From Verrucomicrobiia bacterium (GTDB taxonomy: Bacteria > Patescibacteriota > Saccharimonadia > Saccharimonadales > JAGQNK01): DNA of 64,000 bases. The DNA is taken from contig DATHJY010000004.1 of NCBI GenBank assembly GCA_035489575.1, forward strand, positions 91,483-155,482, written 5' to 3'. The notes beneath the pieces are model-generated. The model was not told where the DNA came from and ran no database searches. It was given only the letters and a program-made list of their open reading frames with translations. Both the position numbers and the translations under genes were made by a program. This document shows, piece after piece, positions 16,721-53,876 of this stretch (position 1 is the stretch's first letter; every line of letters begins with the position of its first letter).

Positions 16721-16839
16721 ACCTGAATCCCGAAACTCAATTTAACAGAGGTAGGTGAAAATGAAAGTCTACTCACCCCAACAGAGACGGCAACTTCACC
16801 CAAATCCTTATAACAGGGGTGTAGTTTCGGGATTCAGGT
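16721..16839. mobile_element. MITE-like element (119 bp), perfect 17-bp TIRs, 6-bp TSD TGTATA
   Basis: acctgaatcccgaaact (16721-16737) is the exact reverse complement of agtttcgggattcaggt (16823-16839). tgtata flanks both ends (16715-16720 and 16840-16845). Confidence 0.7.
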
Positions 16840-17899: not shown

Positions 17900-18023
17900 A
17901 CCTGAATCACGAATTAGAACCCCTGTTAAATTACAGATAGGATGTATCCGAATCAGGCCCCCTTATCTGTCGGAAAAGCACAAGAGAATCAGACTAACAG
18001 ATAGGCTAATTCGTGATTGGGGT
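17900..18023. mobile_element. second MITE-like element (124 bp), 18-bp TIRs with 2 mismatches
   Basis: acctgaatcacgaattag (17900-17917) versus the reverse complement of ctaattcgtgattggggt (18006-18023) gives 16/18 matches. No clear TSD. Confidence 0.5.
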
Positions 18024-19466: not shown

Positions 19467-20376
19467 CCGTGAATCACGAAACCCCCAACACATAAAGCAC
19501 CCGTTTTGCTACTCTTGAAGTGCTAGCTAAAAGAGGAAACAAACATGAGTGCTTTACAAAAACATCATATCGTCGATCTGTTTGTTTGGGTAGACGAATG
19601 TCTACCCAAACACGAGCCTTATCCGTTCGGTGGTCGTCCTTCGGCTCTCCGGGATAGTGAGCTGCTCACTATCCTCATCTGGGACGGCCTCAACGAACCG
19701 CACAAAACACTCAAGGCCATTCATTCCTGGATACGGCGGGATTATGGAGATTACTTTCCTCACCTGCCCAAGTACCAGAACTTTGTGGCTCACTGCCACC
19801 GGCTACTGCCAGCTATGATCTGGCTGTTGCAGTCCTTGCTGCGCTACGATGCGGCCCTGCGCTTTGCCGACAGCACCATGCTGGAAGTATCCAAGAACCA
19901 CCGAGCCGACCACCACAAGGTTGCCCGAAGTGTGGCCGCCTGGGGCAAGAACTGGCAGGGCTGGCACTACGGCTTCAAGCTGCACGCCAGCATTGACCAG
20001 AACAACAACCTAACTGGTATCTGTTTCACCCCGGCCAATGGCTATGACGCTCAACACATGGAGCAACTGGCGAAAGGCGCGACCAAAGTCCTCGTTGGCG
20101 ATAGCCACTACGGAGCCAGCCCGATGAGAAGGCGGCTCTGGAAGAAGCACGGCATTATTGTTATTGCACCGCCGCACTACAAACAGCGCAAGAAGCTCAT
20201 GAGCGGAATGCAATTCCTACTCCTGAATATGCGGTCCAAGATTGAAGCGACCTTCGACTACCTCAAGGAGCACATGCACCTGGTTAGCTCGTTCCCGAGG
20301 AGCGTGAACGGCTACGCCGTTCACTACCTACGGACGCTGCTCGGTTACCAGATGGGGAGGGTTTCGTGATTCACGG
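19467..20376 (+). mobile_element. insertion sequence (910 bp), IS982-like / IS5-superfamily DDE type
   Basis: Perfect 18-bp terminal inverted repeats: ccgtgaatcacgaaaccc (19467-19484) and gggtttcgtgattcacgg (20359-20376). The 6-bp direct repeat ataacc flanks both ends (19461-19466 and 20377-20382). Confidence 0.85.
19545..20369 (+). CDS. DDE transposase (274 aa)
   Basis: The blocks ADSTMLEV, WHYGFKLHASID, VLVGDSHYG and RSKIEATFDYLK resemble IS982/IS5-type DDE transposases. The ORF ends inside the right TIR. Confidence 0.85.
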   Translation: MSALQKHHIVDLFVWVDECLPKHEPYPFGGRPSALRDSELLTILIWDGLNEPHKTLKAIHSWIRRDYGDYFPHLPKYQNFVAHCHRLLPAMIWLLQSLLRYDAALRFADSTMLEVSKNHRADHHKVARSVAAWGKNWQGWHYGFKLHASIDQNNNLTGICFTPANGYDAQHMEQLAKGATKVLVGDSHYGASPMRRRLWKKHGIIVIAPPHYKQRKKLMSGMQFLLLNMRSKIEATFDYLKEHMHLVSSFPRSVNGYAVHYLRTLLGYQMGRVS

Positions 20377-31508: not shown

Positions 31509-31896
31509 TTCCTATAGGACCTAGGTGAGTTACATGGAATCTCTCGTGCTTCAGGCCGAATCCCAGTGCTCGGTCCAGGCTAATATGAGCGTTCCAGGCT
31601 AGCATGGCGAGGGTAAGTTCTGTAAATCCACCGAACAATCCAATGATCAGTAGGACACGGGGAACGATATAGCTATGTCCCAGGTTATACGCCAGCCCGC
31701 CGATGTGATTGTTGACTAGGTAGCCCAGCATAAACAGGTCAATGCTCACAAATATAGCCGCAAAAAGCCACCAGTTGCCACCCAGCGTGCGAAAGGCATA
31801 TGTGGTGATAATGAGCACCAAAAAACATTCCGCGCGGAGCACCAGACTACTTCTCTTTGTCGCCCAAGGTTTTTTGGCTAGTGCTTGGTCCATCAT
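31492..31896 (-). CDS. DUF4260-like small membrane protein
   Basis: Hydrophobic, with the motifs LGHSYIVP and HISLDRALGFGLK. Start taken at the tandem Met (MMDQ) rather than the longer track ORF. Confidence 0.5.
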   Translation of the reverse strand: MMDQALAKKPWATKRSSLVLRAECFLVLIITTYAFRTLGGNWWLFAAIFVSIDLFMLGYLVNNHIGGLAYNLGHSYIVPRVLLIIGLFGGFTELTLAMLAWNAHISLDRALGFGLKHERFHVTHLGPIGIKKSS

Positions 31897-31986
31897 TACT
31901 ATCTTACACGTCATAGAGCAGATCTTGGGGTATATTGTTGGTTGCACTATATTGCAATTAATACAATATTATGTTATATTAATACA

Positions 31987-33048
31987 GTGCAAGATGAAAC
32001 AGAAACAACTGCAAAAACACCGCAGCATGAAATTTTTGCTTCTCCCGATAGAGACCTGACACTATATCTTACGGTTAGCGAAGAGCTAGGTTCGGTGGCC
32101 CTGAAGAATGAAGCCGCAGAGCACGCGCTAGACATTTGGCGGGCCAACACTAACGAAATCTTAGAATTTCCTTCTGTAGAAGAAGGTTTGGATATGGACG
32201 GCATTCGTGCTGCCCGTGAGCGCATGGGTGTTACCGAGAGACCACTGCGATTTCTTTCGCCAGAAGATTACCAGAGCGTTCTTACTCTCCTTGAGGATTC
32301 GGAGGATCATAGTAGTGGACGATATCTTTATAATCAAGACGTACTTCTTGTGAAGCGCGACCCATCGCTAGAGGCGCTTAACGGCCCTGGGTATACCGAG
32401 AGTCTGGCTGTTCATGAAATGGCCCATAGTGGGATGTCCATTAGTTTGACTGCGAATGTCGACATTAAGCGCGGCATCGTTGACGGCATCGAGCAGCAAT
32501 ACGTCACTGGTGGTATCGAGCAGCATCCGACTCGTGCCGGCTTTATCGTTAAGGGCCCTGAGACACAAGAGGGGAAAGAGAGAAAAATACATGGGAGTGC
32601 CCTGGAAGAAGGGTATGCAGAGTTAGAGCGAGGCATCTTTAACATAAGCATAGGCAGGCCCAACGGTTTCGGGGTTGCCGGACAAGAAGATGGTTATGAC
32701 CCTTACGCCAAATACTCAGTGCTATCCAAAACGGAAAAAGGGGAAGTGCAGTCTAGTGACACACCTGGCGCCTCCGTCGCGGTGATATTAGAGGTATTGA
32801 TAGAAAAAGATCCAGAAATACTGGATGCGCTTAGGCGTCGTAACTTAGGCGGTCGTGATTCGGTTGACGGCCATAGAGAGTTTATACAGAGGGTCAATCA
32901 TCTTGTGCCTGGACTATATAAAAAGCTGAGACAGCTTAACCATCATGATAAATATTTCAGCACACGAGCAAGGGAATTGTATGATGACACGTTGGTTGAT
33001 CTGGACCTCGACCTCGATCCAAAGTACAAAAATAGACCTATACGTTAA
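31987..33048 (+). CDS. HExxH-motif protein, gluzincin-like (about 353 aa), paralog group member 2
   Basis: LAVHEMAHSG is followed by SALEEGYAELE, resembling the MA-clan third-ligand helix. The start is uncertain (GTG 31987 or TTG 31942). The 3' end overlaps ychF by 11 nt, convergently. Confidence 0.55.
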   Translation: MQDETETTAKTPQHEIFASPDRDLTLYLTVSEELGSVALKNEAAEHALDIWRANTNEILEFPSVEEGLDMDGIRAARERMGVTERPLRFLSPEDYQSVLTLLEDSEDHSSGRYLYNQDVLLVKRDPSLEALNGPGYTESLAVHEMAHSGMSISLTANVDIKRGIVDGIEQQYVTGGIEQHPTRAGFIVKGPETQEGKERKIHGSALEEGYAELERGIFNISIGRPNGFGVAGQEDGYDPYAKYSVLSKTEKGEVQSSDTPGASVAVILEVLIEKDPEILDALRRRNLGGRDSVDGHREFIQRVNHLVPGLYKKLRQLNHHDKYFSTRARELYDDTLVDLDLDLDPKYKNRPIR

Positions 33049-34117
33049 ACCGAAACTCCACAACATCATCAGGTTGCATGATATAGGTTTTGCCCTCGGT
33101 ACGGACCTTGCCCGCGGCCTTGGCGGCAGCTTCCGAGCCAGCAGCTAGTAGGTCGTGATAGTCGACAATCTGGGCGGCGATAAACCCACGCTCGAAATCG
33201 CCGTGAATAACACCGGCGGCTTGCGGGGCGGTAGCGCCTTTGCGTACGGTCCAGGCCCGTACCTCTTGCTCGCCTGCGGTCAGGTAGCTTTGCAGACCCA
33301 GTGTGTCATAGGCGGTATGGGTCAGCTGTACCAGACCGGACTGGTGTACGCCGTAACTCTCTAGCAGTTCGCTGCGGTCTGTGTCGTCCAGGCCCTTTAG
33401 CTCAGATTCTAATTTGGCACATACAAAGACTGCCTGCGCGGGCTTTACCATATCAGACAGCTGCTGCTTCTTGGATTCATCTGCCAGCGCTTCTTCGTCG
33501 ACGTTGAACAAGTAAATAATCGGCTTGGCTGTCAGAAGCTGCAGGTCTGCAATGTGCTCCATGTCCAGGCCGTCTAGGGCAGACAGGGGCGTCCCTTCAT
33601 TAAGCGTGTCGTGAACCATCTGCAGCGTTTCGGCCAGGGGCCGTAGCTTGGGGTTGGCCCGGGCTTCTTTGTCTACGCGGGGCAGGCGCTTCTGGACGGT
33701 TTGCAGGTCTGCTAGCACCAGTTCGGTGTTGATGACGTCTATGTCTTTCTGGGGGTCATGCTGGTCGTCCACATGTTGCACGTTGGGGTCGCTAAAGGCC
33801 CGCACCACATGACAAATAGCATTGCAGCTCCGGATATTGGCCAGGAACTGGTTGCCCAGGCCCTCGCCCTGAGAGGCGCCAGCCACCAGACCGGCTATGT
33901 CAACAAAGGTAACCGTTGCGGGCACTATTTTTTTGCTGTTATACAGGTCGGCTAATTTCTGCAGCCTGTTGTCTGGCAAGGGGACAATGCCAGTGTTGGG
34001 TTCTATGGTGGCAAAAGGATAATTGGCTGCCAAAATGTCGTTGTCAGTCAGGGCGTTGAACAGCGTAGACTTGCCAACATTTGGCAGACCCACAATTCCA
34101 ATTTGAAGTGAACTCAT
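33038..34117 (-). CDS. ychF: ribosome-binding ATPase YchF
   Basis: IGIVGLPNVGKSTLFNALT P-loop, a TGS-like C-terminus and a length of 359 aa. Confidence 0.95.
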   Translation of the reverse strand: MSSLQIGIVGLPNVGKSTLFNALTDNDILAANYPFATIEPNTGIVPLPDNRLQKLADLYNSKKIVPATVTFVDIAGLVAGASQGEGLGNQFLANIRSCNAICHVVRAFSDPNVQHVDDQHDPQKDIDVINTELVLADLQTVQKRLPRVDKEARANPKLRPLAETLQMVHDTLNEGTPLSALDGLDMEHIADLQLLTAKPIIYLFNVDEEALADESKKQQLSDMVKPAQAVFVCAKLESELKGLDDTDRSELLESYGVHQSGLVQLTHTAYDTLGLQSYLTAGEQEVRAWTVRKGATAPQAAGVIHGDFERGFIAAQIVDYHDLLAAGSEAAAKAAGKVRTEGKTYIMQPDDVVEFRFNV

Positions 34118-34125
34118 ATGTAGCT

Positions 34126-34176
34126 ATTCTAACAGAGGTAGCGCTAGTTGACAAATAAGCATAAGTGTGATAATAT
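34126..34176. promoter_or_regulatory. back-to-back divergent promoters with overlapping -35 boxes
   Basis: Plus strand: ttgaca (34148-34153), 17 nt, taatat (34171-34176). Minus strand: ttgtca (complement of 34149-34154), 17 nt, TGtTAGAAT (complement of 34126-34134). The -10 ends 8 nt before the ychF ATG. Confidence 0.5.
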
Positions 34177-34200
34177 GAAATTGTTAATCCAAAACAAAAA

Positions 34201-35067
34201 ATGGCAGAACCTGTACCGCATTCATTAACTCCTCCCGAAGCCCTAACTCTTAGGGTAGATAGTCTTGATACTCAACAGGGTATTGGGGGTGGTGACTTGG
34301 ATAATGAAGCTAACCGCACAGCAGAATCTATCCTCGGTGCACATATGCCAGCGTATGACCACTATGTAGGTGCTGCTCGTGATTTTGTAGCAGATAAGCT
34401 AGGGATGACAGACGTGTCTTCCGTGGATCGTACGGCAGTGTTACCTGCCGAAACTGCCGAAGCCTGGGGTGTTGGAAGCAGTGGCGGGCACTATTTACCA
34501 GAACTTGAAGTGGCATATGTTTTTGAACAATCAAGCGGAAGGCCCAAAACTGACAAACTGATTTTAGCATCTAGTCTTGTGCACGAACTTGCTCACTCGG
34601 CTACGGTTACGCCAGAAAATGCTAGAAGCGAAAATCCTTTTTATCACGAAGCCCTTGCGGGAATGGCTGAATACTTTGCCCTGCAAAATCTGGCAGAAGC
34701 GGGAGAGTTTGATCCAGCACCTGATACAACCGTTACCAGGACAGTCGGCGGGGAAGACATTACAATAGTTGTTCCAGGAAGTTTCCGTAGAGTTGATGCT
34801 TCGGAAGTGAAGGATGGACAGGCAGATAGTACACAAGCACTCATCGCAGCAATGGTTGTGGGTATGGGATTAAAAATAAACGGACAGTCAGCCAAAGAAC
34901 TTCTAGGTTTAGCCAGAAGGGGTGATAACGCAGCGTACGATGCAATGCGGAATGCTATGGCAAGTATTGACCCAACACTCGTAGAAGACATATTACAGAC
35001 ATCAGGTTCAACGGATGAAATTATCAAGGTTGCTCATAAAGCCCAAAAAATTGTTGAAATGATTTAG
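34201..35067 (+). CDS. HExxH-motif protein, gluzincin-like (288 aa), paralog group member 3
   Basis: LVHELAHSA is followed by FYHEALAGMAEYFA (EGxAxY-like helix). No signal peptide. Confidence 0.6.
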   Translation: MAEPVPHSLTPPEALTLRVDSLDTQQGIGGGDLDNEANRTAESILGAHMPAYDHYVGAARDFVADKLGMTDVSSVDRTAVLPAETAEAWGVGSSGGHYLPELEVAYVFEQSSGRPKTDKLILASSLVHELAHSATVTPENARSENPFYHEALAGMAEYFALQNLAEAGEFDPAPDTTVTRTVGGEDITIVVPGSFRRVDASEVKDGQADSTQALIAAMVVGMGLKINGQSAKELLGLARRGDNAAYDAMRNAMASIDPTLVEDILQTSGSTDEIIKVAHKAQKIVEMI

Positions 35068-35103
35068 AATAGCCGCGCTTGTTTTGTAGTTTGGGCATAC
35101 GGA

Positions 35104-35190
35104 GTTTTAGCTCAAAAGGCAATTGGGTTAAAGCTTTAGTATGCCTATAGATAAACTCATACAATGTCTATTCTAACAGAGGTAGCGCTA
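35104..35190 (-). pseudogene. decayed copy of ychF promoter + first codons (copy B)
   Basis: Shares the exact 23-mer ctattctaacagaggtagcgcta with the real ychF upstream region (34124-34146). The minus strand reads ATGAGTTTATCTATAGGCATACTAAAGCTTTAA = MSLSIGILKL*, compared with YchF MSSLQIGIVGL. Confidence 0.55.
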
Positions 35191-35283
35191 AAGAACAAAA
35201 AAGACATTCCACTGCAAAATCCCATTCAGCGGGGTGAAACCTCTATACCTATACCCTAAACTTCACTTCAGTTATTGATATGT

Positions 35284-35311
35284 ATGTATACATAATATAC
35301 AATGTATACAT
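35284..35311 (+). promoter_or_regulatory. two copies of 10-bp palindrome ATGTATACAT (putative vapBC operator)
   Basis: atgtatacat occurs at 35284-35293 and 35302-35311, 18 bp centre to centre. The second copy overlaps the vapB ATG. Confidence 0.5.
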
Positions 35312-35561
35312 GTCTAAAATTCAGTATACTATTAGGAATATCCCGCCTGCAGTCGATACTGTTATCCGGAAACGATCCCAGCAAAGCGGAAAGTCGTTTA
35401 ACCAGACTGTGGTAGATTTATTGTCTTTGCAGACATTTGGGACTACAGAGATACCCCTCGACAACAATTTTGATTGGCTCTACAACAAAAATACTCTTGA
35501 TGAGTCATTCGATGAAGCAATTGAAGATCTATCTCAAGTAGATGAGAAGCTCTGGCAATGA
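35310..35561 (+). CDS. vapB: antitoxin, ribbon-helix-helix/FitA-like (VapB-type)
   Basis: MSKIQYTIRNIPPAVDTVIRKRSQQSGKSFNQTVVDLL is typical of an RHH antitoxin N-terminus. The stop overlaps the vapC start (ATGA). Confidence 0.7.
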   Translation: MSKIQYTIRNIPPAVDTVIRKRSQQSGKSFNQTVVDLLSLQTFGTTEIPLDNNFDWLYNKNTLDESFDEAIEDLSQVDEKLWQ

Positions 35562-35956
35562 CAGGTGCTCAGTTCGTGCTTGATACCAGTGCATATTCTG
35601 GCTTTAACCGTGGTGACAAGCGACTCAAGACTTGGCTCCATGCCGACAATCAAATAGTCGTGCCCTTAGTGGTGATAGGTGAGTTGCGTGCTGGGTTTTC
35701 TCTGGGGACTAAACGCAAGGAGAACGAAGAACTACTACAAAAACTCCTGGATAGTCCAAATGTCATTACAGCCACAATAACTGACAAAACAACTATATTA
35801 TTCGCGGAAATATATCGCCGGCTTCGACAAGCCGGGACGCCAATCGGCACTAACGATATGTGGATAGCGGCGCTCGCATTGGAGCATGACAGTCTGCTCT
35901 TGACGCTCGACTCGGATTTTTATCGAGTCCCAGATCTTTTGGTAGCAAAGCTTTAA
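35558..35956 (+). CDS. vapC: PIN-domain ribonuclease toxin VapC
   Basis: FVLDTSA, IGELRAG, GTNDMWIAA and TLDSDF give the conserved acidic quartet of PIN domains. Confidence 0.85.
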   Translation: MTGAQFVLDTSAYSGFNRGDKRLKTWLHADNQIVVPLVVIGELRAGFSLGTKRKENEELLQKLLDSPNVITATITDKTTILFAEIYRRLRQAGTPIGTNDMWIAALALEHDSLLLTLDSDFYRVPDLLVAKL

Positions 35957-35971
35957 CTTATTGTATACACT

Positions 35972-36054
35972 GTTTGAGCCCAGAAGGCAGTTGGGTTAAA
36001 ACTTTAGCATGCCTATAGATAAACTCATACGATGTCTATTCTAATAGAGATATA
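35972..36054 (-). pseudogene. decayed copy of ychF promoter + first codons (copy C)
   Basis: An ungapped hand alignment to 35104-35186 gives 72/83 identities. The minus strand reads MSLSIGMLKF*. Confidence 0.5.
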
Positions 36055-36289
36055 TACAGCAATGGGACGTAAGGGGCGACTTAGGCTTGTTTATCGTAAA
36101 TCACGATCCGAGTTCCGGATTGTCCGAATAGATCGTAGAAACGAGAAAACTTATAAAGACCTGTAACCCTCTACGAATTGCTTGGAGTAGCCGCGGCTGC
36201 TGCCTGGCTTGGGTAGTTTAATCAATTCGAAAAACTAAAGAGTAAATGCTCTACATAGTAAGGTAAAGTTTGGGTAGTTAAGGAAAAAC

Positions 36290-36691
36290 ATGCGTATAAA
36301 TGTCAGCGTGATCGTAACCCACAATAAACAAGTCCTGCTGATGCAGCGCAGCCTAACGGACGATTATTTTGCTGGCGCGTGGGGCATCCCTGGTGGCTAT
36401 ATGGAACCGGACGAGATGTACCTGGAAGAAACAGCTATCCGCGAGACCATGGAAGAAATGGGCGTAAGGATTAAGCCCACGGGTGTAATTGCAAATAACA
36501 GGAACAACGACACCGATACCTTCTACCTCGTTGTGTCCGCCGAGCTAGAAAATCCTGACGACTATCCCAAGAACATCAAGCTATCCGAAGAGGCCAATGA
36601 TTTCAAATGGGTTGGCAAGGATGAGATTGATAATCTGGAATTTACACCCTACACCATCGATCGTGTACGCAAGGCGTTAGCGGAGGCGTAG
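36290..36691 (+). CDS. NUDIX hydrolase
   Basis: Nudix box GGYMEPDEMYLEETAIRETMEEMGV (Gx5Ex7REUxEExGU). Confidence 0.85.
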   Translation: MRINVSVIVTHNKQVLLMQRSLTDDYFAGAWGIPGGYMEPDEMYLEETAIRETMEEMGVRIKPTGVIANNRNNDTDTFYLVVSAELENPDDYPKNIKLSEEANDFKWVGKDEIDNLEFTPYTIDRVRKALAEA

Positions 36692-36830
36692 CGGGACAAC
36701 GGGTTAATATCCTGACCCCGTCTAAAAAGCTTACAAGCCTCTCACTCCCGAAGATCGAGGTCCTTATTATATTGTTTGATGCCGGTAGCTTGGTCGGCTT
36801 TTGGCTGCGTGGTTACTCTCTGTCGGTGGT

Positions 36831-39023: not shown

Positions 39024-39617
39024 ATGTGGGGACGCAAAAAGAATAAAACTAGTGATGTAACTGCAAGTACGTCGCCTACGCAGGCGACTGCTAAGCTGGA
39101 CCATACCATTGTGTCGTCTGGTAAATCAAAGCGCTCTTTTTCTTGGAGCAAGTTGTCTAAGAAGCGCAAGATTATTTTGCTGGCAGTGGTAGTACTGGCT
39201 GCGGCGTTGCTGGTAACGGCTGTGATTGTATTGGTGGAAATCCTACGCAAAGATCCGGTCGAGCCTCTGCCCACGACCGAGCAAGCTACAACTGAAATGC
39301 TAGCCGACTTTTATAAGCGACGAGACGAACAGGCGCAGCAAGCCTCACCCGAGGTTCAGATAGGCGGCCAGTTCAAAACCTACGAAGATAAAATTACCAA
39401 CAACCAAGCCGGCAACGATGACAATGAGCGGTTCACTACCTATAGCCAAGCAGCCTTCTTGGGCGCCCGCCTGAACAAGTCACAGGCTGCCGAGTATGCC
39501 AAGAAGGCCTTAGGGTACAGCAACACTATGGATAAGGCATCTAAAGAAGCCAGTGCCGGACTTATCAAAAGCTTAGAGGCGGTAGCCAAGGGAGATTACC
39601 ATGCCTTTACGCAGTAA
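39024..39617 (+). CDS. single-pass membrane-anchored hypothetical protein
   Basis: The ATG at 39024 gives MWGRKKNK, then the TM helix IILLAVVVLAAALLVTAVIVLV. Its 3' end overlaps the next ORF by 17 nt. Confidence 0.5.
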   Translation: MWGRKKNKTSDVTASTSPTQATAKLDHTIVSSGKSKRSFSWSKLSKKRKIILLAVVVLAAALLVTAVIVLVEILRKDPVEPLPTTEQATTEMLADFYKRRDEQAQQASPEVQIGGQFKTYEDKITNNQAGNDDNERFTTYSQAAFLGARLNKSQAAEYAKKALGYSNTMDKASKEASAGLIKSLEAVAKGDYHAFTQ

Positions 39618-41994
39618 AAAATCGTTAGCACTGATCTTTGTATTTGCGTTTGTAGTGAGCGCAGTGTGGGGCGTGGCAAAACCACCAAAAGCAGCTGCTC
39701 AACGGTCTAATACCTCCCATGTCTGTCGACGGTTTGCTGATGTCGTAAGCCAAGGAAGGCTGCCGAGTGGGTATACCTATGTCACCTTCGAATATGGTGT
39801 ATTGGGCAACGACTATGGTCGCCGCTTCATGAACAGCAGTGGTACAACGGTGGCAGATGCAAACGGTGCTTGGTTCAACGATAGTGGTTCTGGCTGCACG
39901 GCTTCGGGTCTATCGGCGCTGTATTGGGATGGCAATACGGTGTCTTATAACGGTGGGTTTTATCAGGCAGTTTTTGATGCGGCTCATACTCAGCCGTCTG
40001 CAGTGCACGATATATACCTGGGCTTTCCCGGCGGTGCCGCTGGCAATGCCACGGGCTATAATTATTGTGGAGTAGCCAATATTGGGTGGCAGGATGCACC
40101 TTATGGGTTTCGAAACACCTTTGGCATATCAAACTGTCCGCTTGCGCCGTTTGCGAGCCTCAATGATTCGCTGAGAGTCATACTTGGTAATCGCACTGCT
40201 ATCTGTATGGGCATGGCCTTTAATGTAGGGCGGAGTACGGGTGCCAACGATGCGGTGTGTGACCGCGGAACCAGTCCTCCGGACCCTCGCTATAATATGT
40301 TTGACGCGGCCAAGGTGTATGAGGGTGGGGGTGACTTTGCGGGCCACCTGAACGGTGGAAGCGCCGCGGCCCGTAACAATATCCACGCTTTTTATAGAGG
40401 TGCTGTTGCAGCACAAACACCTATATCGGCCCTGGATGCTGATTTGCGGGATGGCAGCTTCCAGCTGATCGTATTCTCTGGCAATACTCGTGATCCTATT
40501 CCTCCGTTTTTCCCCTGGAACACCGCGTGCCAGAGCCTCGCGCCTATAGCTGGTTTTTGCGCACCACCGGGCTTCCCAGATGACCCATACCTGAACCACA
40601 AAGCGTCGGTGTACGTCACCTATATCCTGGGGCCGCCAATAGTCAATCAGTTCAGCCTGACACCTATCGCAGACACCACCCTGAACCCAAATGACGAAGC
40701 GCCCACTTCTGTCACCTTTGCTTCAGGAATGACGGTAGCCAACAGCCCAGCGGGTTCACGTGTGAACGCTTCTATTAACCGCTCGTTCTTTATCCGTCGC
40801 GGCGCAACAACTATTCCGCTGCCACCCCCTCCGGGCGGCCCAGGATTTGTTACGACTAGCTTCGACTATCCTGCAGAGACACGGGCGTTGGTTGGCATGC
40901 AACTGGGTGACCAACTATGTGTGCGGATTGTGGTCAGCCCGGCGGAAGGTACGATGGCAGCAGATGGCACGGTTCAGACGGTAACGTTGGCTTCACGCGA
41001 GAGGGAAGAGTGCCAACAGATAGTCGCCAAGCCGTACTTTAGAGTCTATGGTGGTGATATCATCGCCGGTGCCGGCTATACTGGCGGGGCATCTTGTGGT
41101 AACCAAAATGCAGGTATTATCAGCTGGAACCGGCCAGGTGGTGCAGGACCATACATTGGTTCTGGCGGTCAACTTGGTGTCATGGCCATGGATATTATCT
41201 ACGAATTTGCGTCTGGTCAGGTACGCACCAACTCTAGTGCGGCAGCCTCGCCCAAGTCTTCTACCTTCGCCAATGTTAACCCGTCCTTTAGTAGTTACGG
41301 GGCAGGTACCTATGGTGGCGGTCTGTTTAGCGCCCCAGGCACCGCACCGTGTGCTCCGGATTGGTACGCAAATGCCACAGGGCCAGATCCTGGACCAACC
41401 CTGATTATTAACCCGGCGCCCAATGTTATTCAGACGCTCTATAGTAATCATGATCTCACTATACCTACGACCAACTTGGGGGCCGGCAGCAGGATTACCG
41501 TCTACGTGAATGGCAATGCCTTTATAGAAGGTACGGGTGTGAGGTATCAGGGAACAGGTGATTACGCCAATATCTATGACATTCCGTCGTTCAGGCTTAT
41601 CGTCCGTGGAAACATCTATATTCTCCCCAGTGTCTCGCAGCTAGATGGTGACTACATTGCACAACCAAGCAATGCCAACACGGGCCGTATCTATACATGC
41701 GGTGGTCGGCCATGGATTGCCCGAGCCGGTCTGTCGCAGTACGTACCTGATGATGCGGCCATAAACACCACCTGCCGTACTCGACTGACGGTGTACGGTA
41801 CGATGACCGCCGAAGTGCTGAAGCTACTGCGTACAGCTGGCACACAGGCAACGTCTGTACCGAATGAGAACTTCTCTGCAGGAGGCAATCCTGGCGAAGT
41901 CTTTATCAACAGCGCCGAAAGCTGGTTGAGTGGTGGGTTAGACACGGGTCAGGGTGCGGCCGACGGCTATGCGCCATTACCACCGGTCCTTTAG
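39601..41994 (+). CDS. large secreted hypothetical protein (797 aa) leading the pilus gene block
   Basis: N-terminal signal peptide (SLALIFVFAFVVSAVWGVAKPPKAAAQ). Gly/Asn/Thr/Ala-rich with scattered Cys. No recognisable domain. Confidence 0.6.
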   Translation: MPLRSKKSLALIFVFAFVVSAVWGVAKPPKAAAQRSNTSHVCRRFADVVSQGRLPSGYTYVTFEYGVLGNDYGRRFMNSSGTTVADANGAWFNDSGSGCTASGLSALYWDGNTVSYNGGFYQAVFDAAHTQPSAVHDIYLGFPGGAAGNATGYNYCGVANIGWQDAPYGFRNTFGISNCPLAPFASLNDSLRVILGNRTAICMGMAFNVGRSTGANDAVCDRGTSPPDPRYNMFDAAKVYEGGGDFAGHLNGGSAAARNNIHAFYRGAVAAQTPISALDADLRDGSFQLIVFSGNTRDPIPPFFPWNTACQSLAPIAGFCAPPGFPDDPYLNHKASVYVTYILGPPIVNQFSLTPIADTTLNPNDEAPTSVTFASGMTVANSPAGSRVNASINRSFFIRRGATTIPLPPPPGGPGFVTTSFDYPAETRALVGMQLGDQLCVRIVVSPAEGTMAADGTVQTVTLASREREECQQIVAKPYFRVYGGDIIAGAGYTGGASCGNQNAGIISWNRPGGAGPYIGSGGQLGVMAMDIIYEFASGQVRTNSSAAASPKSSTFANVNPSFSSYGAGTYGGGLFSAPGTAPCAPDWYANATGPDPGPTLIINPAPNVIQTLYSNHDLTIPTTNLGAGSRITVYVNGNAFIEGTGVRYQGTGDYANIYDIPSFRLIVRGNIYILPSVSQLDGDYIAQPSNANTGRIYTCGGRPWIARAGLSQYVPDDAAINTTCRTRLTVYGTMTAEVLKLLRTAGTQATSVPNENFSAGGNPGEVFINSAESWLSGGLDTGQGAADGYAPLPPVL

Positions 41995-49467: not shown

Positions 49468-49544
49468 GATAGCAGTGAGTCTAGTCGAACAGTCCTACTA
49501 ACGTGGGACTGTTTTTGCTACAGGCTTCTTGTATAGTAATAACC

Positions 49545-50372
49545 ATGACTTTTTTGATCCTGCTGCTACTAGGATTGTGTTTTGGTAGTTTTGTAAACGC
49601 GCTAGTGTGGCGCTTGCATCAACAAGAAACGCGTACCTCTCTTAGTAAAAAACAAAGAAAAGATCTCTCCATACTACAGGGGAGGTCCATGTGCGTGCAT
49701 TGCCATCACACCTTGGCCTGGTACGATCTGTTGCCGGTGGTAAGCTGGCTCAGTCTGCGCGGTCGCTGTCGCTACTGCCAAAAGGCCGTCAGTTGGCAGT
49801 ACCCGGTCGTAGAGCTCCTGACGGCCGCGACATTCATCGGTTCTTATATGGCCTGGCCTTACGGTTGGGACGGTGCTGGTATCACGCCGTTTGGACTGTG
49901 GCTGGTATTTCTGGTGGGCTTTATGGCCCTGGCCGTCTATGACTTACGCTGGATGGAGCTACCCAACAGACTGGTGTACCCGCTTATCGTCCTGGCGGTG
50001 GTGCAGGTGCTGGTAAAGGCGGCGGCCTACCAAGACCTGCAGAGTGCTGTTGCCGGAGCCTTCTGGGGCTTCCTGGTCATTGGGGGGCTATTCTATGCCT
50101 TGTTCCAGATATCCGGGGGCAAGTGGATCGGTGGCGGTGATGTCAAACTAGCTTTCATGATAGGTCCGCTGGTGGGCGGCCCAGTAGCAAGCCTGCTGGT
50201 TATCTTCCTAGCCTCTTGCCTGGGCAGTCTGGTATCTTTGCCGCTCATTGCTCGCAAGTCGCTCAAGGCCACTAGCCGCATACCATTTGGTCCATTTTTG
50301 CTAGCGGCAACTGTCGTTGTCTATACCTACGGCGACAGAATAGCCGACTGGTACACGAGTATGTTCCTATAG
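49545..50372 (+). CDS. pilD: prepilin peptidase / N-methyltransferase PilD (A24 family)
   Basis: CVHCHHTL...RGRCRYCQ zinc motif, plus the catalytic Asp motifs AVYDLRWMELP and GGGDVKL. Confidence 0.85.
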   Translation: MTFLILLLLGLCFGSFVNALVWRLHQQETRTSLSKKQRKDLSILQGRSMCVHCHHTLAWYDLLPVVSWLSLRGRCRYCQKAVSWQYPVVELLTAATFIGSYMAWPYGWDGAGITPFGLWLVFLVGFMALAVYDLRWMELPNRLVYPLIVLAVVQVLVKAAAYQDLQSAVAGAFWGFLVIGGLFYALFQISGGKWIGGGDVKLAFMIGPLVGGPVASLLVIFLASCLGSLVSLPLIARKSLKATSRIPFGPFLLAATVVVYTYGDRIADWYTSMFL

Positions 50373-50390
50373 AAATGTAACCTTTAGGCT

Positions 50391-50768
50391 ATGTCTTTTG
50401 CTATAGTTTTAGGTATGGCTGCTAAGCAAAAGAATTCCACGCTTACCAAAGAAGTATATATGGCTTATTTGACCGGGGTTGTGGTTGTTATTTTCGCGTT
50501 GCAGATGCTTTGTATACCCTTAATTTATTTTTTCTGGAGATCGGACGGCGGAGTGCCAATGAGTGGTCTCATTACTGTGCCGGCTACTGTCATTCTCTAT
50601 ATCGTCTTAGGGGCTGTTAACGTACCGCTACTTATCTGGCATGGTATTAAGAATGATAAGAATGCAGATGAGTTTACGAGAAGGATTGGGTGGGCTTTGC
50701 TTATTCTGAGCCCAGCAATTACTTTTATCGCTGCTCTGGTTGCGTATTTGATTTGGGGGACTGACTAG
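50391..50768 (+). CDS. hypothetical polytopic membrane protein (125 aa)
   Basis: Three to four hydrophobic helices. It follows pilD. Confidence 0.45.
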   Translation: MSFAIVLGMAAKQKNSTLTKEVYMAYLTGVVVVIFALQMLCIPLIYFFWRSDGGVPMSGLITVPATVILYIVLGAVNVPLLIWHGIKNDKNADEFTRRIGWALLILSPAITFIAALVAYLIWGTD

Positions 50769-50967
50769 AAAGGGTAGGCTCACACATTTCTTATCCAAAG
50801 AAGTGGAGTGAGCACTTGTCAGTTTTTACAGCGTTGCCTTACCGCAATCCACCCCTCAGGGTGGGATGAACTCCGGTAAAGCAGATGAGTGGGGCTGTTC
50901 GGGCGATTAAATCGACCAAACCTCTCATCTGACGCCGGGATTTCCGACGGTTACTAACTAGCTATCC

Positions 50968-52764
50968 CTATCTGATGCACCTTGCATCTTCGTAGCCGTC
51001 ATATCGCAACAACCCTAACTGACGAGCTCCTTCGATCCTTTCATCGGAATAGTGACCAGGGGCAATTCTCCAGCCTACATAGTCGAGGCCAGGAGGCGGG
51101 TTCTGCCAGCAGTCCAACATCCATGGATCTGTTATGAGGGTCAGGGTATAGGCGTAGGTTGCGCCGTCTGATGCAGAGTATTGCGGTGCGCCCCTGGTCC
51201 GGTGGAGCCACAGATTGCCGTGGTCGTCATAGGCCGCGCCAATTGTCCAGGAGCAGTCATCGTCGTACACTACACCCCCTGTGTCCTGGTACTCCTCCAG
51301 CGCTTGCGCTGGAACCGTAAAGACCTTCGCACCTCGACCCGCAAAACAGTTTGCGCTTGGTACGTGGTTGGGGTCTCCGTCGTGCCACCAGATCCGTGTT
51401 CGATACTTCTCGCCATTCGGCCCGTAGCTTATGACCCACGAATTTTCGTAGTCATAGGGTGACCACCCTGATCCTAATGATCCGTCCAGGATGTCACCGG
51501 CTCGCGGAACGCTCAGGTTGCATCCGGGTTGGCCTGGCAGGTCAGGGTAGGGCGCTGCGTTGGTTGCGGCGTCGAAGACCTGGCTGGGGTTCTTCCACGA
51601 GATCAGCTTGTACTGCCCGTTGGGCTGCTGACACCTGGCAAAGTCGGCCGTCACCTTCCACAGCTTGCCGGTGCTGTCCAGCGCGTACCACTGGTCGTCG
51701 ACCTTGGTCAACGACATCTTGGGGTAGTCCGCCCTGATACGATCGTTCAGTAGCTGCTGAACGACGGGCAACTGGTACAGCTCTTGGGCAGTAGCGGCGT
51801 GGCCTGCAGCACTTGGGTGGAACCACTCGTGGCGATACACCGAAGAACCCGGCGAACGGATCCAAGGCTCAGCGCTACCGCTGATGCCGTGACCGTCGTA
51901 GATCCCATCGTTGTTCTGGGTGTGCAACGGCAAGAAGCCAAAGCGGCCAGAGCTGGAAATGTTGAGATTGTCGATCAGCTCCTGCTGTTCGGCATTGAGC
52001 AGATTCAGACCAGCCTCCAGACGTTGACCAGGATAGATGGCTCCGCCGCATCCCGGACAGGGAATAGACGCTTCGTCTTCCTCTGAGAACAACGGATAGC
52101 CCACCAGCACGATCTTGGTGCCGGGGAACTCGTTCTTGAGCTTGTTCAGTGCCGCCAGCATGCGAGCCTGGATGACGCTGTACTGTCCGGGCGAGTCCAT
52201 CATGGCCTCGGCAGCGTCAAAATCCGCGTCACAACTTGGTCCGAAGGGAACCAAGTAGCAGTGCACGAGCATGGAGGCAAACCCCAGGTCATTGCCCCCA
52301 ATGCTGAGGGTGATCAGATCCACCTCGGCCCGCTGTTCGGGTGTAAAACCATCTATCTGAGGCGGGTTCCCATTGGTACCGGTGATGTTCTCGGTGATGT
52401 CACCGGTGCACGCTGCGTTAACATACGCACCACTGCTCCCAAGCAACCGGTACAGCACCTCGCTGTAATTGTTGTGGTTGCGGTAGCAGCCCCGGTCCGG
52501 GTCGGGATCACTGGGGCTGGTGGTCGGTCGCTGACGGACCAGTGAGATGTTGCGGGGGTCGTCCGGGCTTTTGTCACTGTTGTAGTAACCATCAGAGCCA
52601 TCGCTCGTCGCGTTGTTCCCGGCTGTGTAGCTGTCACCAACTGCCAGAATGTCGATATAGGCACTGGGGCCGTTCTCGTCGTGGCTCGGGAGTTCTCGAC
52701 AGCTGACGGTTGCAAATAGCACGGTTGCCGCAAGAGCAACCAATCTTACCCGTGTGCGGGTCAA
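50968..52764 (-). CDS. secreted SGNH/GDSL-family hydrolase with ~250-aa C-terminal extension, high-GC gene
   Basis: Signal peptide. SGNH blocks are ILAVGDSYTAGNN (block I), SIGGNDLGF (block III) and WFHPSAAGH (block V-like). Opposite strand and higher GC than the flanking pilus genes. Confidence 0.7.
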   Translation of the reverse strand: MTRTRVRLVALAATVLFATVSCRELPSHDENGPSAYIDILAVGDSYTAGNNATSDGSDGYYNSDKSPDDPRNISLVRQRPTTSPSDPDPDRGCYRNHNNYSEVLYRLLGSSGAYVNAACTGDITENITGTNGNPPQIDGFTPEQRAEVDLITLSIGGNDLGFASMLVHCYLVPFGPSCDADFDAAEAMMDSPGQYSVIQARMLAALNKLKNEFPGTKIVLVGYPLFSEEDEASIPCPGCGGAIYPGQRLEAGLNLLNAEQQELIDNLNISSSGRFGFLPLHTQNNDGIYDGHGISGSAEPWIRSPGSSVYRHEWFHPSAAGHAATAQELYQLPVVQQLLNDRIRADYPKMSLTKVDDQWYALDSTGKLWKVTADFARCQQPNGQYKLISWKNPSQVFDAATNAAPYPDLPGQPGCNLSVPRAGDILDGSLGSGWSPYDYENSWVISYGPNGEKYRTRIWWHDGDPNHVPSANCFAGRGAKVFTVPAQALEEYQDTGGVVYDDDCSWTIGAAYDDHGNLWLHRTRGAPQYSASDGATYAYTLTLITDPWMLDCWQNPPPGLDYVGWRIAPGHYSDERIEGARQLGLLRYDGYEDARCIR

Positions 52765-52965
52765 CGTTCCTCCTAAAGGAAGTTGTAGGAAAGAGAACTA
52801 GCAAATTGTTAACGTGCAATGCGAGAATTGTGGACTATGGCCATTTCCTCTGGTACTTGATACTACTCAAACATTGTCGATAGGCAACTATATCATCTTT
52901 ACGCTCTTTTTACTAACGGTATTATGCAAAAAAAGTGACTCCAAACACCTGTCAGTTTTAGTGCT

Positions 52966-52978
52966 TATGCTATATACT
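52966..52978 (+). promoter_or_regulatory. extended -10 element (TATGCTATATACT) just upstream of minor-pilin operon ATG
   Basis: The recurrent motif ends 7-9 nt before the ATG at 52986. Confidence 0.4.
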
Positions 52979-52985
52979 TGGTGAC

Positions 52986-53876
52986 ATGAAGATGGGTGGC
53001 AGGGGACACCATGCACTAAGTTTTGGCCATGGCTATACCGTTGTAGAAGTCATGATATTTTTAGCCATTACATCGGCCTTGTTCGTCATGGTTGTCATTA
53101 GCTTCCAGGGCCAACAGGGCAAGACACAGTTTACTACCTCGGCCCGGGACATGGAGTCACGCGTTCAGGATATTATCAACGATGTTGCTACTGGTTTTCC
53201 GGGTAGCGATGGCAGTTTCCGTTGCACGCTTGGGGGTGGCAAGCCGCAGATCACGGCGATTGCCCCTAATATTGATACCATCGGTACCAATACTGCCTGT
53301 ATATATATTGGTAAGGTATTGCAGCCCTCGATAGCCGGTGATCCTGATAACTACGCAGTCTATCCTATAGTTGGCTTGCGGCAGATAGCGGGTAGTAGCA
53401 AACTAGCTACTAGCTTTGCAGAATCGCAGCCTATCGCTATCGCTCCTCCGAGTAGTCCAGATGTGGATCTGACAGATAAAGATCGTTTACCGGTTGGGGT
53501 TACGATTGCTCGCATGACTTATGATCGTGGTGGAACTAAGCAGGATATTGATGGCATCGGATTTTTCAGCACACTTGGGTCGTACACTGGGGGTGCTATC
53601 GATACCATAAGACCAGGCGCATTAAGCGTATACATGGTGCCGCTAAATGGCGACAGCGCACCTTCCAATATTTCTGAAAATGATCTGGTTCAGCACATAG
53701 ACGATACGCTCAACTATAGCGATAATGATCTAATTAAATTTTTCATTGAAGCACTAAAGGGCAGCGTTGTAATTTGTATGAATAGCGACAGCAGTAACCA
53801 GCATGCAGTGTTAAAGATTGGTGGCGATGGCCAACAGCTGACAACAGATTTGGAGATATTTAATGATAAGTGTTAA
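52986..53876 (+). CDS. minor pilin / pseudopilin (296 aa)
   Basis: FGHG|YTVVEVMIFLAITSALFVMVVISF is a class III signal with E+5. Confidence 0.6.
   Translation: MKMGGRGHHALSFGHGYTVVEVMIFLAITSALFVMVVISFQGQQGKTQFTTSARDMESRVQDIINDVATGFPGSDGSFRCTLGGGKPQITAIAPNIDTIGTNTACIYIGKVLQPSIAGDPDNYAVYPIVGLRQIAGSSKLATSFAESQPIAIAPPSSPDVDLTDKDRLPVGVTIARMTYDRGGTKQDIDGIGFFSTLGSYTGGAIDTIRPGALSVYMVPLNGDSAPSNISENDLVQHIDDTLNYSDNDLIKFFIEALKGSVVICMNSDSSNQHAVLKIGGDGQQLTTDLEIFNDKC

Follow-up and report, generated by a model that had tools for sequence, protein, structure and literature searches.

An insertion carrying the gene for a predicted SGNH hydrolase lipoprotein in the type IV pilus locus of a soil Saccharimonadales genome

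The insertion between pilD and the minor pilin genes

We analysed a 64,000-nt stretch of contig DATHJY010000004.1 (positions 91,483 to 155,482 of assembly GCA_035489575.1; hereafter, the window), which comes from a soil member of the Saccharimonadales (Saccharibacteria) and carries, antisense to the genes of a type IV pilus (T4P) cluster, an intact gene for a 598-residue SGNH hydrolase that is predicted to be a lipoprotein. The gene (50968..52764, minus strand) starts with TTG and ends with a stop codon at 50968-50970. The Shine-Dalgarno sequence AGGAGG (52769..52774, minus strand), read from the reverse complement of 52751-52800, is located 4 nt upstream of the TTG codon. The gene is full length and keeps all of its catalytic residues. 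It lies within a lineage-specific segment of 2.57 kb (50373..52942) that is flanked by native pilus genes of the plus strand. On the left, the prepilin peptidase gene pilD (49503..50372) matched Pfam A24_N_bact (1e-29) and Peptidase_A24 (4e-14) and is syntenic in all relatives. On the right, the first minor pilin gene (52986..53876; 296 aa) encodes a prepilin-type N-terminus with a weak GspH match.

The locus was compared with those of relatives collected in a PilC-based scan with one genome per GTDB species, which yielded 80 loci; 68 of them hold both pilD and the first minor pilin gene. In all 68 the minor pilin gene directly follows pilD, and the gap between the two has a median length of 79 bp (maximum 757 bp), compared with 2613 bp in the window. 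By blastn, homology to the spacer of the relatives restarts at ~52943, the right junction of the insert, and the region 50373-50967 matched no relative. Neither the SGNH protein nor a 125-aa open reading frame (ORF) on its left gave a tblastn match in any of the 80 loci. A preliminary description of this DNA had proposed an antisense insertion into the pilus locus, and the comparison bears it out: far from being uniformly present at this position, the gene occurs there in 0/68 relatives, all of which have the short spacer.

The gene also differs from its surroundings in composition. Its GC content of 58.4% is 6.4 points above the window mean of 52.0% (z = 2.7), a level that 1.3% of equal-length windows reach, and its GC content at third codon positions (GC3) stands at 69.1%, where the mean is 55.8% (z = +2.0). 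Among the 14 genes of at least 400 aa, none has a codon usage further from that of the rest of the window (distance 1.10). The 60-nt GC counts given earlier (39/60 within the gene, 21/60 and 22/60 to its sides) are exact, with the comparison lines falling in locally AT-rich spots; the deviation of the gene is real but moderate. An atypical composition and the absence of the gene from this site in the relatives are what a horizontally acquired islet displays. The opposite history, in which the gene was ancestral at this position and lost elsewhere, is scarcely credible. It has nothing in its favour beyond the presence of the gene here, and it needs a loss in all 68 sampled species, the four closest included, with the same short spacer left each time. 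The atypical composition also speaks against it, as does the lack of remnants in the spacers of the relatives by blastn or tblastn.

A direct repeat brackets the SGNH gene. The left copy, CACTTGTCAGTTTT (14 bp; 50813..50826, plus strand), came from a repeat search and starts 141 nt past the SGNH stop codon. The right copy, CACCTGTCAGTTTT (52946..52959, plus strand), is native sequence, which aligns with the conserved pilD-pilin spacer of the four closest relatives (L004-L007, PilC 76-78% identical to that of the window) and overlaps the -35 hexamer of a promoter-like element. Of 300 shuffles, two produced a 13/14 match between the flanks of the gene (empirical p ~0.007), and no further close copy of the repeat was found in the 64-kb window. 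If the repeat is a target duplication, the ancestral empty site would hold one copy, CACYTGTCAGTTTT. The promoter-like element of the minor pilin genes, CTGTCA and TATACT separated by 18 nt (52949..52978, plus strand), was located by a consensus scan, and the sequence surrounding it, GCTTATGCTATATACTTGG, is conserved in the four closest relatives. Since the right repeat copy is native and the -35 region is conserved on the right side, the minor pilin promoter survived the insertion intact. A Pfam scan and the repeat search detected no transposase, integrase or terminal inverted repeats in the insert; of the hallmarks of an insertion sequence (IS) or transposon it thus shows the direct repeat and lacks both transposase and terminal inverted repeats. 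The PADLOC defence-system libraries gave no match for either inserted ORF. The locus therefore holds a lineage-specific, compositionally atypical and repeat-bracketed insertion of an intact gene.

The same spacer carries other cargo in another Saccharimonadales species (L078), in which positions 3540-4287 encode an antitoxin of the MazE type (80 aa) together with a toxin of 136 aa that has a PIN domain. Accessory DNA has thus entered this spacer in at least two lineages.

One is tempted to conclude from a location among pilus genes that a gene has to serve the pilus, and a functional meaning of the place in the attachment-organelle locus had indeed been suggested. In a fuller version, the protein would be an accessory surface enzyme recruited to the pilus and regulated together with the minor pilins, and its task would be to make the host surface ready for attachment by the pili. 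The gene does lie physically between pilD and the minor pilin genes, the pilin promoter is preserved, and the two promoter regions stand back to back over ~220 bp (52765-52985) and could share regulation. T4P are, moreover, needed for host association in cultivated Saccharibacteria (PMC9894109, PMC11623550). Nevertheless, the hallmarks of a T4P component are missing: the gene is absent from 68/68 orthologous loci, its homologues are found outside pilus loci, and the SGNH protein has no G/[FY]TxxE prepilin motif, which the flanking minor pilins do have. It also lies on the opposite strand with its own ribosome-binding site, and the toxin-antitoxin pair of L078 suggests a permissive landing site. 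We consider recruitment to the pilus improbable. No homologue is found in a pilus locus, and an unrelated toxin-antitoxin pair occupies this very spacer in L078; the evidence therefore does not support a functional link to the pilus, nor the earlier suggestion of one. The position is most likely an accident of landing in a permissive spacer between two transcription units, and the locus corrects the tempting inference.

The pilus cluster itself is conserved. The gene order common to all relatives is a large protein with no Pfam match, pilM, pilN, pilO, a small ORF, pilB, pilT, pilC, a pilin gene, pilD, four minor pilin genes, xerC (opposite strand) and ndk, which matches “T4P locus one” of Nanosynbacter lyticus TM7x (PMC11623550); the locus is a T4P-1-type cluster. 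In the window, pilM to pilD are on the plus strand, and the four genes from 52986 onwards have prepilin-type N-termini (N_methyl, PilX_N, and weak GspH and GspK matches). The flanking blocks had been described in the same way, and this part stands; the 125-aa membrane ORF, which had been counted as a native member of the left block, is absent from all relatives and has no homologues. PilC identity between the window and the 80 scanned loci, nearly all labelled Saccharibacteria or Saccharimonadales, is 62-78%. The source metagenome-assembled genome (MAG) in the NCBI record of the identical SGNH protein (HTE57551.1; locus tags VK694_) is labelled Verrucomicrobiae, which is a mis-assignment in light of the window synteny and the PilC identity to ~80 Saccharibacteria genomes. 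Implausible labels (Limnocylindria, Nevskiaceae, Dormiibacterota, Pristimantibacillus) were also seen on several of the scanned relatives.

The GC steps at both edges of the insert and the Verrucomicrobiae label could point to an assembly or binning artefact, that is, a chimera of Saccharibacteria DNA with a fragment of higher GC content. We regard this as very improbable. The identical arrangement, with pilus genes on both sides, was found in an independent Logan assembly of SRR7026570 (L001, 15 kb), the identical protein is recorded on a 44.5-kb contig from the Joint Genome Institute (JGI), and pilus synteny continues on both sides of the insert within one contig, an outcome not expected of a simple chimera. 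The agreement with L001 and the JGI record make a chimeric assembly unlikely.

Two further elements lie in the left part of the segment. The 125-aa ORF (50391..50768, plus strand), in which three membrane helices were read by eye, is located within the lineage-specific segment and outside the direct repeats. Its GC content is 42.6% and its GC3 43.7%, its codon-usage distance is the largest in the window, and it matched only itself among 5.8 billion proteins. On the contig of the SGNH homologue P0006 (JGI sample 3300041967), the gene immediately upstream of P0006, which is oriented divergently and has no Pfam match, encodes exactly 125 aa, the same length as the ORF of the window, to which it might be related. 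Between the convergent 125-aa ORF and SGNH gene, a 199-nt spacer (50769..50967, minus strand), which would correspond to the 3′ region of the SGNH transcript, is strongly structured when its folding is compared with shuffles. Its minimum free energy on the minus strand, -77.4 kcal/mol (z = -5.6), was reached by 0/200 shuffles, and the plus strand has z = -3.3. Rfam gave no match for the spacer, either at the gathering threshold or with E ≤ 5, and none of the loci compared contains a homologue. Candidates are a structured 3′ untranslated region, a terminator array and an unknown RNA that the insert brought with it.

Several other features of the window were noted. The 797-aa protein encoded directly upstream of pilM (39601-41994) has a signal-peptide-like N-terminus and no Pfam match; it is syntenic in most relatives, yet only 25-39% identical, and may be a fast-evolving surface protein that belongs to the pilus or attachment system. 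A second variable point of the minor pilin operon lies between its second and third minor pilin genes, whose products correspond to the 149-aa and 228-aa minor pilins; there, ~10 relatives (L014, L030, L056, L063, L071, L072, L076, L077, L079, L081) carry an extra 0.7-1.5 kb, possibly an additional pilin gene. A low-GC stretch at 31885-36800, with a minimum of 42.7% near 34.5 kb, may be a second foreign island of opposite compositional sign; it includes two genes with no Pfam match and very low GC3 at 31885-33048 (42.5%) and 34201-35067 (32.9%, z = -3.4), followed by several small ORFs. The window also contains an IS of 910 bp (19467-20376) with perfect 18-bp terminal inverted repeats, CCGTGAATCACGAAACCC, a DDE transposase (PF13612) and a GC3 of 69.5%, as raised as that of the SGNH gene. 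Near it, at 16723-16837 and 17900-18023, short inverted-repeat pairs with related ends look like derivatives of the miniature inverted-repeat transposable element (MITE) type. A link between the insert and this IS was rejected, as the IS and MITE-like end sequences do not occur near the SGNH insert.

The catalytic domain and the lipoprotein signal

The SGNH catalytic domain spans residues ~37-335 (51760..52656, minus strand) and was delimited from invariant residues, the AlphaFold2 (AF2) model, Foldseek and the family profile. The protein scored above the Pfam cut-offs for PF13472 (Lipase_GDSL_2; 47.0 bits against 32.9, residues 41-324) and PF00657 (Lipase_GDSL; 26.7 against 23.6), the two matches together covering residues 39-329. 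The blocks of the superfamily are GDSY at residues 43-46, ACTG with Gly121, GGND at 156-159, and FHPSAAGH at 315-322, which contains His316. A 598-residue protein with a signal peptide and with the GDS(Y), GGND and FHPSAAGH blocks had been described beforehand, and each of these elements is present. Ser45, Gly121, Asn158 and His316, together with four cysteines (Cys93, Cys119, Cys169 and Cys178), are invariant in 12/12 family members. In the AF2 model, the predicted local distance difference test score (pLDDT) is mostly 80-94 over residues 100-340, and a Foldseek search returned 28 PDB matches at E ≤ 1e-3, nearly all of them SGNH hydrolases. The conserved blocks, the Pfam scores and the three-layer α/β/α fold seen with AF2 and Foldseek place the protein in the SGNH/GDSL superfamily.

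The top three PDB matches by phmmer, by the family profile and by Foldseek were the same Streptomyces enzymes. Phospholipase A1 of S. albidoflavus (SaPLA1, 4HYQ) was matched with E 1.6e-6 by phmmer, 2.2e-14 by the family profile and a template modelling score (TMt) of 0.83 by Foldseek. The corresponding values are 2.9e-4, 9.6e-13 and 0.80 for the S. rimosus lipase SrL (5MAL), and 1.1e-3, 1.5e-10 and 0.56 for the S. scabies esterase (1ESC). The four invariant cysteines align with cysteines of SaPLA1 and SrL. Moreover, the residue three positions before His316 is Glu in the window protein, Gly in the homologues P0009-P0011 and Ser in P0005, so that no Asp is conserved there; the Streptomyces SGNH enzymes likewise have no block-V Asp and are stabilised by disulfides (PMC10779480). 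The window protein thus shares with the SrL/SaPLA1/SsEst-type subfamily of Streptomyces the missing block-V Asp and the cysteines, and that subfamily holds its nearest characterised relatives. Since the identity is only 18-20%, specificity is not transferable from these enzymes.

Carbohydrate esterases were also found by Foldseek, namely CE2 and CE3 acetyl-xylan esterases, sialate O-acetylesterases and the peptidoglycan O-acetylesterase Ape1 (E 1e-6 to 3e-3, TMt 0.3-0.63). From sequence and model comparisons, we assign the catalytic domain to SGNH hydrolases of the Streptomyces secreted lipase/phospholipase A1/esterase type. Esterase, lipase and peptidoglycan or glycan deacetylase activities had all been considered previously; a lipase, phospholipase or esterase, as suggested by 4HYQ, 5MAL and 1ESC, is better supported than a deacetylase on these grounds.

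The first 22 residues, MTRTRVRLVALAATVLFATVS followed by Cys (52699..52764, minus strand), were read by eye as a predicted lipoprotein signal peptide. They comprise a positively charged n-region, a hydrophobic core and a lipobox-like A-T-V-S-C motif, which by eye fits a relaxed pattern of the PROSITE PS51257 type. The equivalent of Cys22, preceded by A[AS][SG] or V-A, is kept in all relatives that have the C-terminal domain (P0002-P0006, P0012). The protein was previously called secreted, and the export signal agrees with this; as a predicted lipoprotein with Cys22 as the putative lipidation site, it would be tethered to the cell and not freely secreted.

The C-terminal domain and the protein family

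The remaining 258 residues (341-598; 50971..51744, minus strand) form a C-terminal domain with six conserved cysteines, rich in aromatic and acidic residues (26 Asp, 18 Tyr, 12 Trp). An unassigned Trp/Tyr/Asp-rich part of ~250 residues had been recognised here, correctly: the domain has no Pfam match even at E = 10. An exhaustive hidden Markov model (HMM) search with a six-member profile against 1.84 billion cluster representatives gave 10 proteins at E ≤ 1e-3, of which ~7 are credible. In each of the credible matches (P0002, P0003, P0004, P0006, the fragment P0018 and P0019), the domain is joined to the same SGNH core. The other profile matches were repeat proteins (NHL, Rib) and did not hold up; an NHL β-propeller was rejected for the domain, as its hhalign probability was only 18%. 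The AF2 model of the domain has a pLDDT of 62, Foldseek found no significant fold match in PDB or BFVD, and hhalign self-comparison detected no internal repeat. Carbohydrate-binding or lectin folds had been named as candidates for this region, and no known carbohydrate-binding module (CBM) or lectin was matched by Pfam or by fold. Viral contigs contained no relative of the domain. We therefore describe it as an unclassified, cysteine-rich and presumably extracellular domain, which is confined to this protein family. Neither the domain nor the domain architecture of the protein is described in Pfam, NCBIfam or PDB.

Members of this family are exceedingly rare. Among 5.8 billion clusters (roughly 15 billion proteins), 16 homologues were found, about a dozen of which are close relatives; five are full length and 39-50% identical to the window protein. 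A scan of JGI metagenomes for the DNA of close homologues returned only distant SGNH genes of ≤29% identity. In five sister proteins (P0007-P0011), the SGNH core, 46-50% identical to that of the window protein, follows one or two N-terminal malectin domains, and the C-terminal domain is absent. In a neighbour-joining tree of the SGNH core, these malectin forms make up a clade with 93% support that is nested among the forms with the C-terminal domain. Between the window protein and P0002, the core is 44% and the C-terminal domain 66% identical; such mosaic identities suggest domain shuffling.

The genomic contexts of the homologues are diverse, and pilus genes were found in none of those examined (P0002-P0009). 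P0002 and P0005 are tandem paralogues located beside an ISL3 transposase, a type IV secretion system (T4SS) coupling protein, a VirB4-like ATPase, a Toprim protein and an M23/glucosaminidase, and the pair recurs in a second sample. P0002, P0003, P0005 and P0006 derive from the JGI samples 3300056388 and 3300041967. P0004 (JGI sample 3300079162) is encoded on a 66%-GC contig, on which the adjoining K+ channel gene has its best named matches in Actinobacteria/Acidimicrobiales (62-64% identity). The GC contents of the P0004 gene (58.5%) and of the window gene (58.4% in a 52% genome) deviate toward the same value. This shared ~58% would fit a recent movement from a third source of ~58% GC, or a mobile element. 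The malectin forms are found on 48-51%-GC contigs in housekeeping neighbourhoods, one of them on a contig with arrays of T4SS_pilin genes; from these arrays and the GC content, we infer that the contigs resemble those of the candidate phyla radiation (CPR). They share no genes with the window. On L166 (2504-3391), the gene of the malectin form P0009 is separated by 546 bp from an oppositely oriented gene for a glycerophosphodiester phosphodiesterase (GDPD), a weak hint of phospholipid breakdown from the context.

Conservation within the family also bears on whether the insert is neutral or decaying passenger DNA with no role in the organism. The confinement of the insert to one lineage and the lack of any remaining mobility gene would agree with such a fate, as would the lack of homologues of the neighbouring 125-aa ORF, which is perhaps not a genuine gene. 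The 598-codon ORF is nevertheless intact, the catalytic residues and the six cysteines of the C-terminal domain are conserved, the ribosome-binding site is a canonical AGGAGG, and at least two datasets contain the identical sequence. We judge it unlikely that the gene is mere passenger DNA.

The malectin domains of the five sister proteins raise a different possibility, namely a carbohydrate esterase, such as an O-acetyl esterase or deacetylase, whose substrate would be the peptidoglycan, teichoic-acid-like polymers or wall polysaccharide of the host and whose C-terminal domain would serve as a glycan-binding module. The CE2, CE3, sialate O-acetylesterase and Ape1 structures among the Foldseek matches agree with this, as does the proposal that the pili of TM7x recognise host cell-wall glycans (PMC11623550). 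Against it, the best matches are lipolytic (E 1e-14 to 1e-10, TMt 0.80-0.83), whereas the carbohydrate esterases appear at a Foldseek E of 1e-6 or weaker, and the C-terminal domain resembles no known CBM or lectin. A carbohydrate esterase is a serious competitor, if a rather unlikely one.

Origin, possible function and known systems

We think it probable that the window gene is an acquired foreign gene for an SGNH lipase-like lipoprotein, whose position in the pilus locus is accidental. Some ~2.6 kb of foreign DNA has entered the pilD-to-minor-pilin spacer; its core is a one-gene cassette of ~2.1 kb bracketed by a 14-bp repeat, probably a target duplication, and the gene is read from the opposite strand with a strong ribosome-binding site of its own. 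Besides the composition, the small number of homologues and the contexts of P0002, P0004 and P0005 speak for a foreign origin. Once exported by Sec and lipidated, the enzyme would reside on the outer face of the epibiont membrane. There, the C-terminal domain might bind a component of the partner-cell envelope, by analogy with malectin in the sister proteins. The SGNH domain might cleave acyl esters of phospholipids, glycolipids or lipoglycans or, less likely, O-acetyl groups. The outcome could be a release of fatty acids or lysolipids, or a loosened host envelope. Action on the host envelope is, in our opinion, plausible, and so is a relevance to epibiotic nutrition.

Several observations weigh against this interpretation. 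First, ~440 bp with the 125-aa ORF (42% GC) sit between pilD and the left repeat. Because this ORF lies outside the repeats, a single clean target-site duplication is not enough for the whole 2.6 kb; either there were two insertion events, or the direct repeat is not a simple target duplication. The 14-bp duplication also exceeds the typical target-site duplications of IS elements, and it comes with no transposase, integrase or terminal inverted repeat. Second, the family gives an ambiguous picture of the donor. The P0004 gene (L164, 1423-3213) is itself atypical on its actinobacterial-like contig (58.5% vs 66% GC), and the window protein groups (68%) with the clade of P0005 and the CPR-like malectin forms, and not with the actinobacterial member. 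The deep nodes of the domain tree, at 5-35% bootstrap, support neither a particular donor nor a direction of transfer. Third, the substrate specificity of SGNH enzymes is not readable from sequence, and the malectin-fused sister proteins point to carbohydrate targets. We must also note that, given the low model confidence (pLDDT 62), the binding role of the C-terminal domain is an analogy only.

A bolder version may be considered, in which the homologues form a tiny mobile family of envelope-targeting lipases, swapped between Actinomycetota and Saccharibacteria epibionts on conjugative or IS-associated DNA. In that case, the C-terminal domain would represent a new type of module for recognising the host envelope, exchangeable for malectin, and the tethered enzyme would harvest host acyl chains or lysolipids. 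We offer this as a speculation of low probability; if true, it would provide a concrete route for lipid acquisition by an organism unable to make its own lipids.

Saccharibacteria are tiny bacteria that must obtain building blocks from the bacteria to which they attach, usually Actinomycetota; little is understood of the ways in which they breach or harvest the envelope of these hosts. In the literature searched, we found no link between Saccharibacteria and an SGNH or lipase gene. In the locus, a strongly reduced genome has gained a gene in a clean and datable way, at a spacer open to other cargo as well, and the gained protein is a predicted tethered hydrolase with actinobacterial lipases as its nearest characterised relatives. 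If the acquired lipoprotein does act on host lipids, it would be a candidate nutrient-harvesting or host-damaging factor, and its C-terminal domain a new targeting module. Because the family is extremely rare, any biology learned from it would be lineage-specific and not a general solution of the phylum.

Both the enzyme class and the phenomenon of acquired islets are already known. Single-gene cassettes and islets bounded by direct repeats share with the insert the absence from relatives, the atypical composition, the flanking duplication of native sequence (14 bp in the insert) and the location in an intergenic spacer; the insert differs from them in having no integrase, transposase, tRNA target or terminal inverted repeats, and in the extra 440 bp outside the repeats. 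The Tle families of type VI secretion are lipase and phospholipase effectors of interbacterial antagonism, sometimes encoded beside a small membrane or periplasmic partner, and most of them are GxSxG or HxKxxxxD enzymes. The window protein would resemble them, by analogy, in the idea of a lipolytic enzyme aimed at the envelope of another bacterium. It differs in that it belongs to another family, has no secretion-system linkage or recognisable immunity gene, and is predicted to be tethered to its producer.

The malectin-SGNH proteins (P0007-P0011, for example on GCA_040383985.1) have the same SGNH core and catalytic residues, and combine, as the window protein does, a catalytic with a presumed targeting domain. 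They differ in their one or two N-terminal malectin domains, in the lack of both the cysteine-rich C-terminal domain and the lipobox Cys, and in their housekeeping neighbourhoods. The Streptomyces enzymes (4HYQ, 5MAL, 1ESC) share with the window protein the α/β/α fold, alignable GDS, ACxG, GGND, GH and HP blocks, cysteines at the disulfide positions, and export. Compared with them, at 18-20% identity (Foldseek), the window protein has ~60 extra residues between blocks I and II, a predicted lipid anchor and the 258-residue C-terminal domain.

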